From the NCBI GenBank assembly GCA_944391315.1, contig CALXTD010000005.1, positions 2,523-66,522 on the forward strand: a stretch of DNA of 64,000 nucleotides, in the 5' to 3' direction. Under the pieces are notes generated by a model. The model worked only from the letters and a program-made list of their open reading frames with translations, was not told where the DNA came from and made no database searches. Below are positions 18,023 to 39,166 of the stretch, one piece after another (the stretch's first letter is position 1; each line of letters starts with the position of its first letter). Both the position numbers and the translations under genes were made by a program. This stretch comes from an uncultured Alphaproteobacteria bacterium (lineage in GTDB: Bacteria; Pseudomonadota; Alphaproteobacteria; RF32; CAG-239).

Positions 18023-18099
18023 TGGGGCGAACGATCGGGCTCGAACCGACGACAACCGGTACCACAAACCGGGGCTCTACCAACTGAGCTACGTTCGCC
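18023..18099 (-). tRNA. tRNA-His (anticodon GTG) with encoded G-1, C73 and CCA
   Basis: Hand-folded cloverleaf: G(-1) GCGAACG TA GCTC AGTTGGTA GAGC C CCGGT TTGTGGT ACCGG TTGTC GTCGG TTCGAGC CCGAT CGTTCGC C CCA. Confidence 0.9.
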
Positions 18100-31271: not shown

Positions 31272-34200
31272 ATGTTTTCAAGAATATTCATTGAACGCCC
31301 ACGTCTGGCAATGGTCATTTCCATTGTCTTGACCCTGGCGGGAGCAATCTCTGTATTCTCACTCCCGATTTCATTATATCCGGAAATCACCCCGCCGATG
31401 GTAACGGTATCCGCCAACTACCCCGGCGCCAGCGCCGACGTTTTGGCTAAAACAGTCGGTATTCCGATTGAACAAGAAATCAATGGTGTTGAAGACATGT
31501 TATACATGGACTCAACATCACAAAATAATGGCTCATATTCTTTGTCTGTTTCTTTTGAAGTTGGAACAGATCCGGATATGGCACAAGTTAAGGTGCAAAA
31601 CCGCGTTCAACAAGCTACCCCGAAACTTCCGAGCGAAGTTCAAAGACAAGGTATCAGCGTCACCCGTCGTTCGTCCGATATTTTAGGCTTTTTGAGTGCA
31701 CGTTCACCGAAAGGAACTCATGACAGAAAGTTTATCAGTAACTATGTTGAAAACAACATCAAAAACAACTTGGCTCGTATTAACGGTGTTGGTGAAGTTA
31801 GCGTACACGCTTCTCCTCTGAGCATGCGTGTTTGGTTAAATGCCAACAAACTCAGCGCCTTAAACTTGCCGGTAGCAAATGTCATTGCCGCGATAGAAGG
31901 CCAAAACTATCAACCGTCTTTAGGTAGTATTGGTGCCATGCCGGGTGACGGCGACCAACAAATGGTCTATACCCTACAAACGCAAGGGCGTATTAACGAG
32001 GCTGAAGAATTCGGAAACATCATTGTCCGCACAGCCGAAGATGGCGGCTTAGTCAAACTAAAAGACGTTGCCAAAGTTGAAATCGGAACAGAAAGCTATA
32101 GTGTTGAATCAACCCTTGATGGAGGACCATCTGTTGCAATCTCACTAAACCTTTCATCGGGTGCGAACGCTTTGGAAACCATGGAAGCCGTAAAACAAGA
32201 ATTAAAGAGAATGGAACAACTCTATCCGGAAGACTTCCAAGTTGATATCACCTATGATGCAACCCTGTACATTGTCTCATCAATTGAAGAAGTTATCTTC
32301 ACTTTGGTTTTGACCTTTGCATTGGTTATCGGTGTATGCTATCTGTTTTTACAAGACTGGCGTGCAACTTTGGTTCCGTCATTAACCATTCCGGTATCAT
32401 TATTTGCGACCTTTGCCGTCATGATGGCCTTAGGCTACAGCATCAACTTGCTCACCTTGTTCGGTTTGGTTTTGGCAATTGGTTTGGTGGTTGATGACGC
32501 GATTGTGGTTGTTGAACGTGTTTTGTATTTAATGGAAACAGAAAACTTAACCCCGAAAGAAGCAACGATTAAAGCCATGGAACAAGTTTCCAGCGCCGTT
32601 GTCGCCACGACATTGGTGTTGTTAGCTATTTTCGTTCCGGTCGGCTTCATGGGTGGTATTACCGGTAAAATTTATCAACAATTTGCGGTTACGATTTCAA
32701 CATCAGTTGCTTTCTCAGCCTTAAATGCGTTGACCTTATCTCCGGCATTATGTGCAACCTTACTCCGCCCGATAAAAGAAGTAACATCAGGCCCCTTGCA
32801 CATATTCAATATCATTTTGAACAAAGCCCGCAATCGCTATATTGGTGTTATAGCAATTATCGCACGAAAAGTCAGCGTTATTGCGCTTATTCTCGGGATG
32901 TTAATTCTTGGAAACTATGCATTTCTGAAAACCAGCCAAACCTCATTCATTCCAAATGAAGACCAAGGCGTTATCTTGGCCAACTTCCAATTACCGGAAG
33001 GAGCATCATTTGAAAGAACGAGAGAACTGATAAAGAAACTCTATCCGACCATTAAAGCCGAACCTGGCGTCAGCAATGTCATGTCGATTATCGGCTTCAG
33101 CTTGATTGGCGGTAGCGGTGAAAACGTAGCCTTCTCCGTCATTACACTGGATCCATGGAACAAGCGTAAAGACGAAGAGCTTTATTCTACCAACATCTTG
33201 AACCGTATTAAGGCTAAGATAGCCAACACACCGGAAGCAGAAATCAACATGTTTGAATTTCCGGCCATTCCGGGCTTAGGTACAAGCGGGGGTATGGATT
33301 ATCGTTTGCAATCTTTGGATAGCTCAGACGCAAATGAGTTATATAGCACGATGCAAGGCTTTTTAGGACGGTTAAACTCCTCACCGGCCATCAACTACGC
33401 CTACTCGACTTATACCTCACAAACGCCGCACATAAACATCGAAATTGAGAAAGAAAAAGCTGAAAGTATGGGTATTTCTATCGGAGATATTTATACCATT
33501 CTGCAAAACTACCTCGGTTCAACTTATGTAAACGACGTAAACTTCGGAACACAGGTTAATAAGGTTATTATTCAATCAGATTGGCCGTTCCGTAAGGATG
33601 TTGATTCGATTAAGAACTTATATGTTCAAAACAAAAACGGCGACATGGTTCCTCTGGGAACGGTTGTTAAATTGGATAAAGTTTTAGCTCCGAGAACAAT
33701 CGAACGCTATAACCAATATCCGGCAGCAACGATTACAGCCGTACAAAGTCAGGATATGAGTACCGGTCAAGCCATGGCAGAGGTTGAAGAATTGTCAAAA
33801 CTCTTGCCCAAAGGCTACAGCTACCAGTGGTCAGGAATGAGCTTCCAAGAAAAAGGAACTGAAGGACAAATCGGTTACCTGATTATCTTGGCTATTACCT
33901 TTGGTTATTTGTTCTTGGTTGCACAATATGAAAGCTGGGCAATGCCTCTGCCGGTATTGACATCAATCACCGTCGCAATGTTAGGTGCCTTTGCCGGATT
34001 GTTCATCACCGGATTACCCTTGAGTATTTACGCTCAATTAGGCTTAATCTTGTTGGTCGGTTTGGCCAGTAAGAACGCTATTTTGATTGTTGAGTTCTCT
34101 AAAGAAGAACGTGAAAGAGGCTCCTCAATCGTCAAAGCGGCCACCACCGGCACAAAAGAACGTTTCCGTGCGGTTTTGATGACAGCCTTCACCTTCATTT

Positions 34201-34373
34201 TGGGTGTATGGCCGATGATTGTCGCCACGGGCGCCGGTGCCTCAAGCCGTATTGCGATCGGTGTTCCGGTATTCTACGGCATGTTGCTGGGAACCGCCGG
34301 CGGCTTGCTCGTCATTCCGCTGCTTTACGTTTTGTTTGAAACAATCCGTGAAAAAGTAAGCAGAAAAAAATAA
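31272..34373 (+). CDS. RND efflux transporter, AcrB/HAE1 family
   Basis: 1033 aa. [24 protein letters not shown] at the N-terminus and a 12-TM pattern with two large periplasmic loops. Confidence 0.95.
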
Positions 34374-34391
34374 AAAAACACAAACAACAAA

Positions 34392-34421
34392 AATACCTCA
34401 CAGAACGTGAGGTATTTTTTT
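34392..34421 (+). terminator. rho-independent terminator of the efflux operon
   Basis: 10-bp stem aatacctcac/gtgaggtatt, 5-nt loop, then a T-run. Confidence 0.7.
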
Positions 34422-34470
34422 ATATAAAATAAAGAAATTTGTGTTATAATAAAACAAAAAGGAAAAAAAG

Positions 34471-36489
34471 ATGAACGATGCAATACTAAAAAAAGAATAT
34501 CAAGACAAAAAACAAAAAGTGCAGTATTGCACAATTGGAAAAGAAACACTTATAATCCCCATCATCTATAAAGGCAACAAAGACCTATTTGCCGATGACC
34601 TCTTCAGCTATGAAGAAGAAGCTGAAAAATATAGAAAACATAATCAAACCTGCGCACAGGGAAAAGAACTTGACCCTCAAATGTTGTTCACAGGAGACAT
34701 ATCTTTTCTCCCACCTTTTGACCTCATAAGATCAAATTGCTCTCAGCAAGAAATCATCAAAAAAGCCACACAAAGGGCCCTAAGAAAATATAAAGCGGCA
34801 CTAAAAAAAATAAATCGCCATAATGAAAAAGAATATCCAGCCTCACCTGTTTTGGCAAAAATGGATAAAGAAACTTTGGAAAATTTAGATAAAAAGCATC
34901 AACGCTACTGCGCCGATAAACTACTGCAAAAATTCGGACAAACAGCAAAGTTCAGTACCCAGCAAATAGCTCAAATAAGTGCCGGTATTACAGGAATTTT
35001 ACCGGTTGTCGCCTATCATTTTATGGATAAAAAATTTCACTTTGCAAATTCCAAAACCAAAAACACTATTGATAAAAAAGTTGTTCCTTATATATGCAAA
35101 GGCGCCTTAAAAAGCTTCATTCCATTAGCCATATATAGCGCGCCCAAACTCATCCCAGATAAAGCCCCAGAGACAACAAGCAATAATAAGGAAACACCAA
35201 CGATTACTATTGTGCAAACGCCTCAAAAAACAACTGAGACAGAAAGCTCACAAATCAATAAAAAATATAAAATAGACGACCTCAAAAGCTTTCATCAACT
35301 TTATAATGACGCCCTTAATTTTATGGCATTATCAATGTTTCCAACTGAAGTTTTGGTAAACGAGGCTTATACCGATAATGGCAAAACAATTAACACCATC
35401 GGACTTGGCAGCTTTTGGTTTCCCAAAGACGGCAATCCGCAAAGCAGTGAATGGATATTAACATCTAACTATGTTAAAAAGAAAAAAATAAAACTCACAG
35501 GCCCTCAAGCCTTGGCCTTAACAGATGGTTGGTACCGCCACCGTGAAAACGGAAGAGTCTACAAAGACATGTACAAAAGACTAAAAGGCTGTGAACTAAA
35601 GGCACATGAATTTGCCGCCATTGCAACCGTTATGTATAACAATGAAGTCAACGGTAAAGAACTATGCGACTTTGTAAAGAAAAACTACCAAACCCCAACC
35701 AAATGTGCAGCCAAAATTATGGATTTAAAACCACAAAATTCACGTTTTAATGACGGCATTCTCAAGCGCCATGCTCATGAAGCCCTTATCTATTTAAACT
35801 GTAATGACTACGCTGAAAAAATTCCTTATTTTGTTATCAAAAAAGGAAAAACATCTAAAGGAAAAACTTATTATGTAACATCCGTAACTCAGCTATCTCC
35901 TCAAGACTGTCACCCCATGTTGCAAGGGCTTAAAAACGGCAGCATCAAAGAAGCAGAACAATTAGCTCAAAAGATTGAAAACTATCGCTGCAAAGGCGGC
36001 AAAACCGTTTATAAAATTGCAGACCAAAACAACATAAGCCAACTTTATAGCTACACTGGAAAAGACGTAAAATTTTATGAAATGTCACGCATAAATCTTG
36101 CTGAAAACAGCTATAAACAAGCATTAGATTATTATAAAAATAAAGACTACGAACAAGCCCTATCTTGTTTTAATGAAATGAGAAAAAACGGTTTTGACGG
36201 AGCTGACATTCGCAATGACATGGCCATTACCTACTATAACATGGGTGAATATGAAAACTGCATAAAAGAATGCCAAGAGGTTTTAAAAACCGGAGAAAAA
36301 GAGCTTTACGCCGCCGCCAACTATAATGCCGGCAAAGCCTACGAAAAACTCGGCAATAAAGACAAAGCCTTAAAAAATTATCAACTTGCTCAGCAAAGAG
36401 ATCCTGAAGAAAAAGCCTACCAAAGCGCCGTTCAACGATTGTCAAAACTGGCACATAATTTTTCAAACAATGGCAAATCAAGGGGATAA
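34471..36489 (+). CDS. large hypothetical protein with a GH24 (phage-type) lysozyme-like core and C-terminal TPR repeats
   Basis: FPTEVLVNEAYTDNGKTINTIGLG gives E293-x8-D302-x6-T309 followed by IGLG, as in T4/P22 lysozymes. HEFAAIATVMYNNEV and GILKRHAHEALIYL align with later GH24 helices. The TPR-like repeats run YKQALDYYKNKDYEQAL...AGKAYEKLGNKDKALKNYQLA. Confidence 0.6.
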   Translation: MNDAILKKEYQDKKQKVQYCTIGKETLIIPIIYKGNKDLFADDLFSYEEEAEKYRKHNQTCAQGKELDPQMLFTGDISFLPPFDLIRSNCSQQEIIKKATQRALRKYKAALKKINRHNEKEYPASPVLAKMDKETLENLDKKHQRYCADKLLQKFGQTAKFSTQQIAQISAGITGILPVVAYHFMDKKFHFANSKTKNTIDKKVVPYICKGALKSFIPLAIYSAPKLIPDKAPETTSNNKETPTITIVQTPQKTTETESSQINKKYKIDDLKSFHQLYNDALNFMALSMFPTEVLVNEAYTDNGKTINTIGLGSFWFPKDGNPQSSEWILTSNYVKKKKIKLTGPQALALTDGWYRHRENGRVYKDMYKRLKGCELKAHEFAAIATVMYNNEVNGKELCDFVKKNYQTPTKCAAKIMDLKPQNSRFNDGILKRHAHEALIYLNCNDYAEKIPYFVIKKGKTSKGKTYYVTSVTQLSPQDCHPMLQGLKNGSIKEAEQLAQKIENYRCKGGKTVYKIADQNNISQLYSYTGKDVKFYEMSRINLAENSYKQALDYYKNKDYEQALSCFNEMRKNGFDGADIRNDMAITYYNMGEYENCIKECQEVLKTGEKELYAAANYNAGKAYEKLGNKDKALKNYQLAQQRDPEEKAYQSAVQRLSKLAHNFSNNGKSRG

Positions 36490-36588
36490 TCAAAAACATC
36501 TTGACAATCTTCCCTTGCGTGATACAAACACAATGTAAACTATATTATTAATTTTAAACAATATCATTATGGAAAAAAAGATGTTATA

Positions 36589-36774
36589 TCAGCTATAGAA
36601 CAATGGATTGATATCAGAAAATTCCAACAATTTTCCACCCAACCGATCACGATAAAGTGCAACTGATGACGGTTTAGTCCGTTGCACTCGAGAGTGAATA
36701 ACAAAACTTGGAGAAATTCGGTAACCGATAATCCGCCCGTTTTCAGGAAGATACTTAGTAGATTCAATTTTCAT
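36589..36774 (-). CDS. small hypothetical protein (start overlaps the stop of the upstream small ORF)
   Basis: The ATG at 36774 lies inside the sequence ATGAAAATTGA that contains the upstream TGA. 61 aa, no motif. Confidence 0.3.
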   Translation of the reverse strand: MKIESTKYLPENGRIIGYRISPSFVIHSRVQRTKPSSVALYRDRLGGKLLEFSDINPLFYS

Positions 36775-36991
36775 AAACATAGCGCGGCTCAGTATAGTCA
36801 TCTACTTTCTCAGGCAATTTTCCATTCCAAATCAGCTCACCTGCCGGACCAACATAAACACCAGCCTTACCGGAAAGCTCATCTTGAATCCGTTTCCGTT
36901 GCTTTGAAACATTACGCAAACAAACAATAAAAAAAGCAACAAAAATAACAGCAGAAACAATAATAGTCCCTAACAAAAGGTTTTGATCCAT
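36764..36991 (-). CDS. small single-pass membrane protein, hypothetical
   Basis: 75 aa, N-terminal TM segment LLGTIIVSAVIFVAFFIVCL followed by a basic stretch. Confidence 0.4.
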   Translation of the reverse strand: MDQNLLLGTIIVSAVIFVAFFIVCLRNVSKQRKRIQDELSGKAGVYVGPAGELIWNGKLPEKVDDYTEPRYVYEN

Positions 36992-37171
36992 AATTATACC
37001 GGAATATTTATTGAGGCTTATATGACCGGATCCTCAGAGATTATACATAATGATATTTATTTCGATTTTTAACCTACCATCTCCCTTAAAATTGTCAACT
37101 CAAAACACCGGAGAATTTTGCATGAATGATAAAGAGCAAAAAATTTTAGTATGCTAAATACCAAAAAGCTC

Positions 37172-37669
37172 GGAGAACGAGACGAATAATAAGATTTAAG
37201 GAAGGAAAAAGCGCAGCGTACAAAATAGTACGTGAACATTTTTCCTATCCGTAAAATCTGTATTAGTCGACCACAGTGCGAACTTGTAAAACTGGGTAGA
37301 ATAGTACAGATAGAGGCATTTCTAGCTGCGAGAAAAATTTTAGTGTACAGAGTAGTACATGAATTTTTCGAGACAGCGTAAAATGCCTCTAGATGTGCTG
37401 TTATACACAGTTTTATTAAAACTGGGGAGAACGAGACAAATAATAAGATTTAAGGAAGGAAAAAGCGCAGCGTACAAAATAGTACGTGAACATTTTTCCT
37501 ATCCGTAAAATCTGTATTAGTCGACCACAGTGCGAACTTGTAAAACTGGGTAGAATAGTACAGATAGAGGCATTTCTAGCTGCGAGAAAAATTTTAGTGT
37601 ACAGAGTAGTACATGAATTTTTCGAGACAGCGTAAAATGCCTCTAGATGTGCTGTTATACACAGTTTTA
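37172..37669. repeat. tandem direct repeat, 2 copies with a 254-bp period, each made of two diverged ~125-nt hairpin modules (A-B-A-B)
   Basis: By hand alignment, 37172-37415 and 37426-37669 are identical except for one position (37184 g versus 37438 a). Confidence 0.92.
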
Positions 37670-37672
37670 CTT

Positions 37673-38122
37673 TTATTTGGCAATCATCGCCGTAAACTCA
37701 GCCTCCGACACCACCTTGCCATCAACAAGGGATTGTCCACGGAAAACATAAACACGACCATGCTCTTTGATTTTTTCAACATGCATTCTGAGCTGATCTC
37801 CGGGTTTTACCGGCTTGCGGAATTTTACACCGTCAATTGACATAAAGAAAACGCCTTTTTTGTTTTCTTTATAGTTTTCAAAACTTGAGATAACCAAGGC
37901 ACCGGCTGTTTGAGCCATTGCTTCAATTTGCAAAACACCAGGCATTACCGGATTTCCGGGGAAATGTCCTTGGAAAAATTCTTCATTCATGGTAACATTT
38001 TTAAGACCAACACCTTTTTCACCGGGAATTTCAACCTCAAGACGGTCAACCAACAAAAACGGATAGCGGTGTGGAAGCATATCCATAATTTCTTCAACAG
38101 TATAAATTTTATTTTCAGCCAT
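37673..38122 (-). CDS. fabZ: 3-hydroxyacyl-ACP dehydratase FabZ
   Basis: LPHRYPFLLVDR, FFQGHFPGNPVMPGVL. Confidence 0.95.
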   Translation of the reverse strand: MAENKIYTVEEIMDMLPHRYPFLLVDRLEVEIPGEKGVGLKNVTMNEEFFQGHFPGNPVMPGVLQIEAMAQTAGALVISSFENYKENKKGVFFMSIDGVKFRKPVKPGDQLRMHVEKIKEHGRVYVFRGQSLVDGKVVSEAEFTAMIAK

Positions 38123-38152
38123 TTTCTTTCCTTTACTATATCAAAATAAAAA

Positions 38153-39166
38153 CTATTTTTTACCAACCTTTTGCAAATATGCAACTTGGCGCATAAAATC
38201 TTTAAACTTAACGGCGGGGGAACCCATCATGATCTCTCCGGGAGCAATATCGCGCATAATACCGGATTGAGCGGCAATCTGTGCACCACTGCCAATATTC
38301 AGATGATCAGCAAAACCAGTCTGCCCACCACAAACCACATAATCGCCAAAAGTGCAGCTTCCGGCAATTCCGGTTTGTGAGACAACAACGCAACAATTCC
38401 CCAAACGATCATTATGAGCAATTTGAACCAAATTATCAATCTTGGTACCGTCTCCGATAACCGTATCATCAAGCGCACCACGGTCGATACAGGTATTAGC
38501 CCCGACCTCAACATTATTTCCAATAATCACACGACCGACTTGCGGAATTCTCTTATGATGGCCTTCCACCATCATAAAACCAAAACCATCTTGTCCTATG
38601 CGTGCCCCGCAATAAATATAACAATTATCACCGATAATAGAATAAGAAATTGAGGCATTGGCACCGATTCTGGTATTATTACCGATTTGGCAATGATGCC
38701 CGATAACAACATTTGGCTCAATACAACAATTTTCACCGATACGAACACCTTCGCCGATAACCACACCGTCCGATACAATTGAACCTTGTCCAATAATTGC
38801 CGTCGGATGAATTTTTGCAGTCGAAGCAATATTTGAAAATTGCTGCTGCTCAGCATATAATTCCTGATTTAATTTCAAGAAAGCCAGCTTCGGATTAGCT
38901 GCCACTAAAACGGCAACACTCTCCGGCACAAAAGGTGCAAGCTCTTCTGTGGTAACACACGCCGAAGCTTTTATTTCAGCTGCTTTTTCTTTAGCCTTTT
39001 TATCATAGAAAAAGCAGATTTCAGCCTCTTGCGCTTTTTCCATCGGCGCAATATTTTCAATCATTATCTGGGCCTTGGAAGGCTGCTTAAGCTCTGCTCC
39101 GCAGATTTCAGCAACCGTTGCCAAAGCAAAAGGACCATTATTGATATAAAAGCGAGTATCAACCAT
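38153..39166 (-). CDS. lpxD: UDP-3-O-(3-hydroxyacyl)glucosamine N-acyltransferase
   Basis: Left-handed beta-helix hexapeptide repeats and the position between bamA and fabZ. Confidence 0.92.

Follow-up and report, generated by a model that had tools for sequence, protein, structure and literature searches.

The window analysed here, a 64,000-nt stretch of DNA from an uncultured gut alphaproteobacterium (contig CALXTD010000005.1), carries a tandem array of hairpin-forming repeats directly behind the stop codon of fabZ. There is nothing exceptional about this array within its family, a lineage-specific group of extragenic palindromic repeats which is of the REP/BIME/ERIC kind and corresponds to no named family. 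Its unit is an element of ~125 nt that is dispersed over many loci, copied as a whole, constrained to form a hairpin, grouped into arrays that turn over, anchored with a single polarity to the stop codons of upstream genes, and also found inside operons. That we are dealing with a dispersed REP-like repeat is nearly certain. The complete statement, namely a REP-like family whose elements function as RNA hairpins at the end of the cistron in front of them, appears probable to us, and an RNA-level function of the element taken by itself may be put at roughly even odds.

An earlier sequence-only reading of the window had described positions 37172-37415 and 37426-37669 as copies differing by one base, which blastn bears out, the sole mismatch being 37184 (G) against 37438 (A). 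Tandem Repeats Finder reports a period of 254 over 2.0 copies (99% matches, score 989) and a nested period of 127 at 63-64% identity. Each 254-bp unit is composed of two ~125-nt hairpin modules, A and B, with a common architecture, different stems and a GTAC-N6-GTAC apex. The stems that had been listed are all present, as are the CGTAAAAT following each inner stem and the central palindromes CGTAC-AAAATA-GTACG (37217-37232) and TGTAC-AGAGTA-GTACA (37344-37359). Folding supports the two modules far beyond shuffled controls, with -32.6 kcal/mol (z = -4.1) for module A and -57.6 kcal/mol (z = -11.0) for module B on the + strand; the minus-strand values are -31.5 and -41.5 kcal/mol, respectively. 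The four GTAC-N6-GTAC matches in the window all fall within the fabZ array, while 0.13 would be expected by chance. Since the same two-unit array is present in an independent assembly from another sample (L001), it is not an assembly artefact.

Unit boundaries were redrawn from the family alignment and a covariance model, the natural unit opening with an A-run and 5 nt and closing with the complement of those 5 nt and a T-run. The array then consists of four elements, all in the + orientation of the model, their reverse complement lying on the fabZ-sense strand: A1 (37163..37287; covariance model R1, 116.1 bits, E = 3.7e-27), B1 (37288..37416), A2 (37417..37541; R1, 100 bits, E = 5.2e-23) and B2 (37542..37670), the folding values above being those of A1 and B1. 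A2 differs from A1 by the single base already mentioned and in its first 9 nt. B1 is diverged and closer to a perfect hairpin, with an outer stem AAAACTGGG/CACAGTTTT; it aligns column for column with the A, C and D types in the family alignment (alignment A2), and its orientation can be read from the asymmetry of its apex, AGTGTACA...GTACATGA. B2 is 100% identical to B1 over 120 nt (blastn) and, owing to the near symmetry of B, R1 matches it (37542-37669) only weakly, with 28 bits, and in the minus-strand orientation. The apex palindrome of A1 lies at 37218..37231, with further sites at 37345-37358, 37472-37485 and 37599-37612, and the motif is invariant in 37 family members. A degenerate B-like remnant (37137..37162, +) closes the end of the array far from fabZ, where a partial piece had been noticed; it contains an exact 12-nt match, AAAAATTTTAGT, between 37139-37150 and both 37333-37344 and 37587-37598. 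Blastn and the covariance model detected no further copies in the window.

At the other end, the 3' end of B2 comes within 2-3 nt of the stop codon (37673-37675) that anchors the array. fabZ (37673..38122, minus strand, from the list of open reading frames [ORFs]) is the last gene of cdsA-rseP-bamA-lpxD-fabZ, and its identity is based on Pfam FabA and related matches, plus neighbouring genes, on contigs encoding the identical protein. These coordinates place the end of the repeat 3 nt from the stop codon, as the sequence-only reading had it. ORFs of 45-56 aa that run across the repeat are artefacts of the repeat: the GGAG-N-ATG of one stem variant becomes ATG-TGA or vanishes in other variants, and consequently the element is not a peptide gene. 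Rfam 15 applied to the whole window at gathering score matched only a tRNA, a permissive Rfam scan of 36900-37800 returned nothing except sub-threshold microRNA and small-RNA noise, and a tRNA/tmRNA scan of the window found tRNA-His (18023-18098) only, in agreement with the initial impression that no known RNA family was involved.

The element is widespread among gut Alphaproteobacteria. A search pattern for the A, C and D types (TGGTCGAYTART-N24-28-TCAYGTAC-N5-6-TGTACRC), for which ~3 chance matches are expected in 596 Gb, matched 48 loci in ~15 metagenome-assembled genomes labelled as uncultured Alphaproteobacteria, Rhodospirillales or 'Azospirillum sp.' and originating from human, chicken, mouse, rumen and deer gut. 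Up to 9 loci occur in one genome (CASFMW), including its fabZ locus (L025, the same as L003). The pattern also matched 27 human-gut metagenome contigs; a B-type pattern had 0 matches in the viral contigs of IMG/VR. On the 48 loci, covariance model R1, built from 37 copies (alignment A2), identified ~110 elements. These form 65 arrays, of which 32 have one unit, 24 have two, 6 have three and 3 have four, and units stand head-to-tail in 63 of the 65. Family elements are intergenic or overlap just the last codons of genes, and arrays decay at their gene-distal end, where remnants are seen. An array of discrete small-RNA genes, as proposed from the sequence, is not supported, the element being found at dozens of loci behind unrelated genes in ~15 genomes, with no convincing promoter of its own and no Rfam match. 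A special element of the lpxD-fabZ transcript is unsupported as well, for the same reason of its presence after unrelated genes at dozens of other loci.

Family members measure 125 +/- 2 nt; AAAA and 5 nt form one end, the complement of these 5 nt and TTTT the other. Each member is an imperfect inverted repeat over its full length, with terminal inverted repeats, and comprises five helices separated by fixed bulges and internal loops around an invariant apex, AG-Y-GTAC-A-N5(6)-GTAC-R-TGA. The outer stem varies among copies (GTTCG, GTTTG, CTGTG, GCGCG, CCGCG and others). The two halves of each stem had been said to change together between A and B, and further copies bear this out: among 37 distinct copies, standard pairs fill 96.3% of cells, compared to 79.2% in shuffles and 35-44% with a slid partner, and 26 of 41 pairs display double-sided changes (301 cells in total). 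Stems occur as a few alternative 'alleles', and nested chimeras are found, such as one with D outside and B inside (L022). These data agree better with copies trading contiguous central or terminal segments while preserving the hairpin than with slow stepwise compensation. A conserved purine-purine mismatch is found in two flipped forms, TCGA-G-TAAT/ATTA-A-TCGA and TCGA-A-TAAT/ATTA-G-TCGA.

To describe the position of arrays relative to genes, an end was scored as anchored when the stop codon of an opposite-strand ORF of at least 100 aa lay within -30 to +15 nt of it. The model-3' end was found at such a stop codon in 48 of 61 assessable arrays, at distances mostly of -3 to +5, against 1 of 54 for the model-5' end. 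A replication set of human-gut metagenome contigs, many of which represent the same locus (~10 distinct contexts), gave 28 of 30 and 0 of 26, respectively. Arrays thus touch a stop codon in 79-93% of cases, with a polarity of ~50:1, and B2 of the window has the same polarity. Read in the sense of the gene, the usual junction is taa/AAAAG, ta/AAAAG or t/AAAAG, the stop codon overlapping the A-run of the element; in other frames the ORF extends 14 or 25 nt into the element, which itself provides the terminating TAA or TAG. The suggestion of a 3'-untranslated-region element thus holds in a general form, as most arrays start at the stop codon of the upstream gene, and is not supported as a description of something specific to fabZ.

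Host genes confirmed by Pfam are ftsH, htpG and an H+-pyrophosphatase gene; others, named by eye from sequence, we take to be infB (IF-2), pnp (PNPase), atpG, atpD, def, pheT, PpdK, LepA, ruvA, MutL, ThyA and several more. Arrays are found at orthologous gene ends across species (infB, pepF, htpG), where their element types differ, for example after infB in L014, L020, L021 and L056. Some arrays stand inside conserved operons, between atpG and atpD (L023 3823-4073; L070 2942-3192; L084 10844-11092), and one element (L054 708-831) occupies the ruvA-ruvB intergenic region, at only 10 nt from the start of the gene after ruvA. This location speaks against efficient termination by the elements. They do end in T4-T6, but the A-run can pair with this T-run, and a promoter and terminator scan of the fabZ array flagged only the apex hairpins as terminator-like. 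The same scan revealed no convincing promoter for a + strand RNA ahead of the fabZ array.

Recent copying is evident from three copies at three loci of the CALXUE genome, which share 98.4% mutual identity while being at most 73% identical to any element in other genomes. The identical stretch coincides exactly with the limits of the element, which marks the 125-nt element as what was recently copied. Another genome holds three copies that are 100% identical. No consistent flanking repeat surrounds single copies, and the sole pair of filled and empty alleles (L061 versus L040 and L064), situated in the terminator loop of a leader described below, lacks a target-site duplication: the filled allele reads GCCTGCCTAAT, then ATGTT...ACGCAA (~133 nt inserted), then TTAAGGGCAGG, and the empty one reads GCCTGCCTAATTTAAGGGCAGG, in which GCCTGCCTAAT and TTAAGGGCAGG of L040 are directly joined. 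Of the possibilities raised from the sequence, a hairpin-forming mobile or recombinogenic repeat comes closest to these results. Its plain form, a classical miniature inverted-repeat transposable element (MITE), is not supported either, since the copies found elsewhere are not flanked by duplicated target sites, although terminal inverted repeats are present.

Proteins that could move the element were also sought. A tblastn search with E. coli RayT returned nothing at E <1 in the window plus 85 loci, which amount to ~0.7 Mb and a few percent of each genome, RAYTs being single-copy. All ORFs of the 48 loci, again a few percent of each genome, were clustered, and no transposase or integrase family recurs beside arrays. 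As for a parent insertion sequence with matching ends, no recurrent transposase-like ORF family exists near arrays in these 48 sampled loci. The only recurrent neighbours are a gene for an 80-aa helix-turn-helix (HTH) protein and variable proteins that have an Lcl_C domain or are of unknown function.

The fabZ locus offers a view of array turnover among closely related strains. At least 22 metagenome contigs share an identical FabZ protein, the organism coming from chicken-gut metagenomes. In the ten contigs that we compared, the operon cdsA-rseP-bamA-lpxD-fabZ is constant while the DNA behind fabZ is variable, with at least 6 different arrays among these ten strains. The window and L001 carry B-A-B-A, whereas L003 and L009 carry B-A; L008 combines B with a B/D chimera, L010 has a chimeric A and then D, and L005 and L006 contain A, C and D; in L002, L004 and L007 the array is broken by a small HTH gene cassette. 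Types C and D have the same geometry as A and B and still other stem sequences. All ten arrays have in common the first ~20 nt after the stop codon as well as the distal end, and the changes are therefore internal, as expected of recombination between units. By such recombination arrays are rebuilt quickly, and the A-B-A-B form of the window, with its two units one base apart, is a recent duplication of the A-B form of other strains.

The cassette that interrupts the array in three strains is a recurrent neighbour of the family. Its 80-aa XRE-type HTH gene, whose product has Pfam matches to HTH_3, HTH_19 and HTH_31, stands beside arrays at no fewer than 12 loci in five genomes, plus the fabZ locus of these three strains (L002 5631-6113; elsewhere L014, L015, L034, L040, L041, L047, L049, L056, L061 and L064; the window lacks it). 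The gene is always on the model strand, pointing into the array and convergent with the host gene. Cassettes are ordered as a sigma-70-like promoter, a conserved structured leader of ~150 nt, an intrinsic terminator and the HTH gene. Of the 47 pairs predicted in the leader, 10 show double compensatory changes; it has an invariant 15-nt loop, TAATATATTGAATAA, and its GGCGGAG can pair either with sequence upstream of it or with the terminator's 5' side. One sub-family has a hairpin element within the loop of this terminator. The leader looks like an undescribed attenuator or riboswitch-like leader; Rfam yielded nothing relevant on the L002 cassette next to the fabZ array. Only 27 clusters among 5.8 billion proteins make up the HTH family, which is lineage-restricted, and models of defence systems gave just weak matches to generic HTH or 'control protein' entries. 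Genomes hold several copies of the cassette, most often set within hairpin arrays, the HTH unit being bracketed by element 3' ends. The cassette can also be found without an array behind it (L061), and most arrays have no cassette. We therefore regard it as a possible partner and not as a part of the hairpin element.

With regard to function, we propose that transcription of the upstream cistron continues into the element, which becomes its tail; the window + strand would then be represented in the fabZ mRNA by its reverse complement. A long RNA hairpin would then begin at the stop codon or a few nucleotides from it. By analogy with the REPs of E. coli, it would block 3'-to-5' exonucleases and, through its closeness to the stop codon (within 15 nt), also hinder the terminating ribosome, thereby tuning the output of the upstream gene, without being a strong terminator. 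According to the summary given in PMC12306157, E. coli REPs that lie within 15 nt of a stop codon cause ribosomes to stall and reduce translation; about 80-90% of the present arrays share this placement. RNase R and PNPase act on REP-containing mRNAs, and the REP hairpins of E. coli are barriers whose degradation needs these enzymes (PMC12320835). New copies would arise through transposition by some enzyme or through gene conversion between arrays. Contigs from four metatranscriptome runs cover parts of the fabZ array and span A/B junctions at a depth similar to, or greater than, that of fabZ, and several of them run off into sequence resembling other family members, which fits a multi-copy transcribed element.

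Several observations weigh against this proposal. The metatranscriptome contigs are unstranded and may hold DNA carry-over. The strand opposite to the host mRNA folds slightly better, with a mean of -47.2 kcal/mol for the model strand and -43.8 kcal/mol for its complement (the model strand being the better one for 73 of 99 elements and the complement for 26), which is not as an mRNA-sense function predicts and is not decisive. It is also on the model strand, the window + strand, that an invariant G.U adjoins the apex. Otherwise, G.U counts are equal (192 versus 199), G.U and A.C are balanced, and both strands fold strongly; fold alone therefore names no functional strand. One-sided G.U intermediates are rare, with 16 cells against the 301 double changes, and for this reason the covariation looks like block exchange of contiguous segments more than stepwise compensation of the RNA type. 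Finally, a plain stabilising hairpin does not explain the invariant apex, the change of the G.A mismatch to A.G or the fixed bulges, features which suggest recognition by a specific protein.

Other explanations account for some of these features. The element might be purely selfish mobile DNA, non-autonomous and similar in type to a REPIN or foldback MITE, that depends on a single-copy transposase encoded elsewhere in the genome and acting in trans. It would then be devoid of host function, its position at stop codons reflecting tolerance of insertions there or a preference for inserting at A/T-rich gene ends. It is indeed multi-copy and dispersed, in precise element-length copies that are near-identical at three loci of one genome; the missing target-site duplication fits HUH/Y1-type or other non-duplicating enzymes, and the decay of arrays into remnants away from the gene agrees with such an origin. 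The lack of a RayT homologue and of a recurrent transposase-like ORF in the DNA searched is a weak negative. Its placement is harder to reconcile with selfish DNA: REPINs, which are hairpins of similar total length and vertically persistent, are reported to be randomly distributed over extragenic space (Bertels & Rainey 2011, PMC3116915), unlike these polar, stop-codon-bound arrays. Moreover, their orthologous positions across species suggest retention and not continual random insertion. Purely selfish DNA thus seems to us somewhat unlikely. The invariance of the apex while stems vary would also be expected if GTAC-N6-GTAC, with its half-sites one helical turn apart, were a double-stranded DNA site for a dimeric protein, serving as a platform for regulation, nucleoid organisation or recombination. 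The XRE-type HTH protein, with its tiny, lineage-restricted family and its gene set beside arrays in a fixed direction, would be the candidate binder. Yet such a site needs ~14 bp and not a 125-bp hairpin with compensated stems, most arrays, that of the window included, lack a neighbouring HTH gene, GTAC-N6-GTAC is absent from the HTH unit's own promoter, and the polarity relative to the upstream gene is left unexplained, which makes DNA sites of this kind improbable. A more elaborate possibility is that the elements, instead of being passive REP-like DNA, are the cis part of an undescribed system in which a dedicated partner, either the 80-aa HTH protein with its leader or another enzyme, reads the GTAC-N6-GTAC apex together with the G.A/A.G mismatch and places or maintains elements at stop codons in one polarity. 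We consider it unlikely; if true, it would represent a genome-wide layer of control on translation termination or mRNA fate of housekeeping genes.

The leading idea of the sequence-only reading, independent structured small RNAs or antisense RNAs made from the window + strand toward the 3' end of fabZ, benefits from the somewhat better fold of that strand, from its invariant G.U and from the direction in which the HTH cassette, where present, is transcribed into the array. It is very improbable nonetheless, given that the fabZ array has neither a convincing promoter ahead of it nor an Rfam match, that elements are tied to the end of the upstream gene and not to a conserved upstream promoter, that they also occur between co-directional genes of operons, and that G.U and A.C counts are symmetric. 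Single-strand-folded recombination sites comparable to integron attC, capturing small cassettes such as the unit of structured leader and HTH gene or the variable genes beyond the array, would account for a length of ~125 nt, a conserved fold with variable sequence, conserved extra-helical bases and a fixed orientation directly after ORF stops. Such sites would also be in line with the cassette-like HTH unit bracketed by element 3' ends and with the gene content beyond the fabZ array, which varies among strains. However, the outer stem is variable and has no conserved RYYYAAC/GTTRRRY pair, GTT and AAC being in the opposite order where they are seen, no integrase is found near any array, and arrays are scattered behind core genes instead of forming one platform. 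An integron attC site was accordingly rejected on the R-box and the integrase and cassette-array tests alike, and we deem any attC-like system highly improbable.

The preferred reading, a REP-like family with a probable role at the tail of the upstream message, places the element next to several known repeats without merging it into any of them. ERIC/IRU sequences are single long imperfect palindromes of ~127 bp in transcribed intergenic regions, whose RNA hairpin has been reported to affect the stability of flanking messages; they are reported in both orientations and with a TA target duplication. The new element resembles them in size and general architecture only and departs from them in its gut alphaproteobacterial hosts, its one orientation and its lack of target duplication. 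Like the Correia/NEMIS MITEs of Neisseria, it is small, non-coding, dispersed, provided with terminal inverted repeats and probably able to alter the expression of neighbouring genes. However, it has neither a target-site duplication nor, in the sampled DNA, a parent insertion sequence, its inverted repeat takes in the full length and covariation is seen in the internal stems. Sites of the attC type, such as the 123-126-bp repeats of Vibrio cholerae, are similar in length, conserved fold, conserved unpaired bases and fixed orientation just after an ORF. They differ by their R''(RYYYAAC)/R'(GTTRRRY) boxes, their integrase and their cassette platform, all missing here, where elements follow core housekeeping genes. 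BIME units alternate in orientation within an array, whereas those of the new element are nearly all head-to-tail. REP/BIME of E. coli and REPINs of Pseudomonas share with the family an extragenic location, palindromic structure, many copies, arrays of mixed subtypes and a hairpin in single-stranded DNA or mRNA. REP/BIME sequences likewise occupy 3' untranslated regions and sites between operon genes, and a stop codon is found within 15 nt of many E. coli REPs, where they stall ribosomes (PMC12306157). In contrast to a REPIN, made of two short REPs and a spacer, the element is one continuous imperfect hairpin of 125 nt with five helices and fixed bulges; its placement is non-random (48/61 and 28/30 at a stop codon, 1/54 and 0/26 at the other end) and, as far as the window and the 85 loci, a few percent of each genome, are concerned, tblastn detected no RAYT, unlike in REP-RAYT systems.

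These results add a defined repeat family, with an alignment, a consensus fold and a covariance model, to a clade known only from chicken, human, mouse and ruminant gut metagenomes. Its polarity and its anchoring behind ftsH, infB, htpG, atp genes and fabZ provide a clean natural system for asking whether stop-codon hairpins of the REP type control translation and mRNA decay outside E. coli, and the protein that recognizes or moves such elements can be sought by way of the conserved apex and mismatches. Arrays break short-read assemblies and differ among strains; they are therefore useful as strain markers and a source of mis-assembly.

Hairpin arrays flank small hypervariable gene islets. Between the fabZ array and an AcrB-type efflux gene (31272..34373), the gene content of the region corresponding to window positions 34400-37100 varies among the strains with identical FabZ (L001-L010). 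The islet of the window encodes one 672-aa TPR protein, and those of other strains encode 146/183-aa or 185/256/136-aa proteins of unknown function, with one weak Lcl_C match; paralogues of these proteins are found beyond arrays elsewhere, for example after infB. Also beyond the array, a small membrane-protein gene (36589..36991, minus strand, from the ORF list) is split into two ORFs (36764..36991 and 36589..36801; 75 aa and 70 aa). It is intact, with 187-192 aa, in L002 (6249-6827) and L003 (5885-6448), the split resulting from a 5-nt deletion (TTGGT) relative to L003, and it is probably a pseudogene in the window strain, L001, L008 and L009. The common gene order elsewhere is lpxD-fabZ-lpxA; here, at window 37673-39166, lpxA does not come after fabZ, and its place is taken by the hairpin array together with unrelated genes. 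Within the gene of the 672-aa TPR protein, a 20-nt tandem repeat is present in 2.9 copies with 78% matches (34772-34830).

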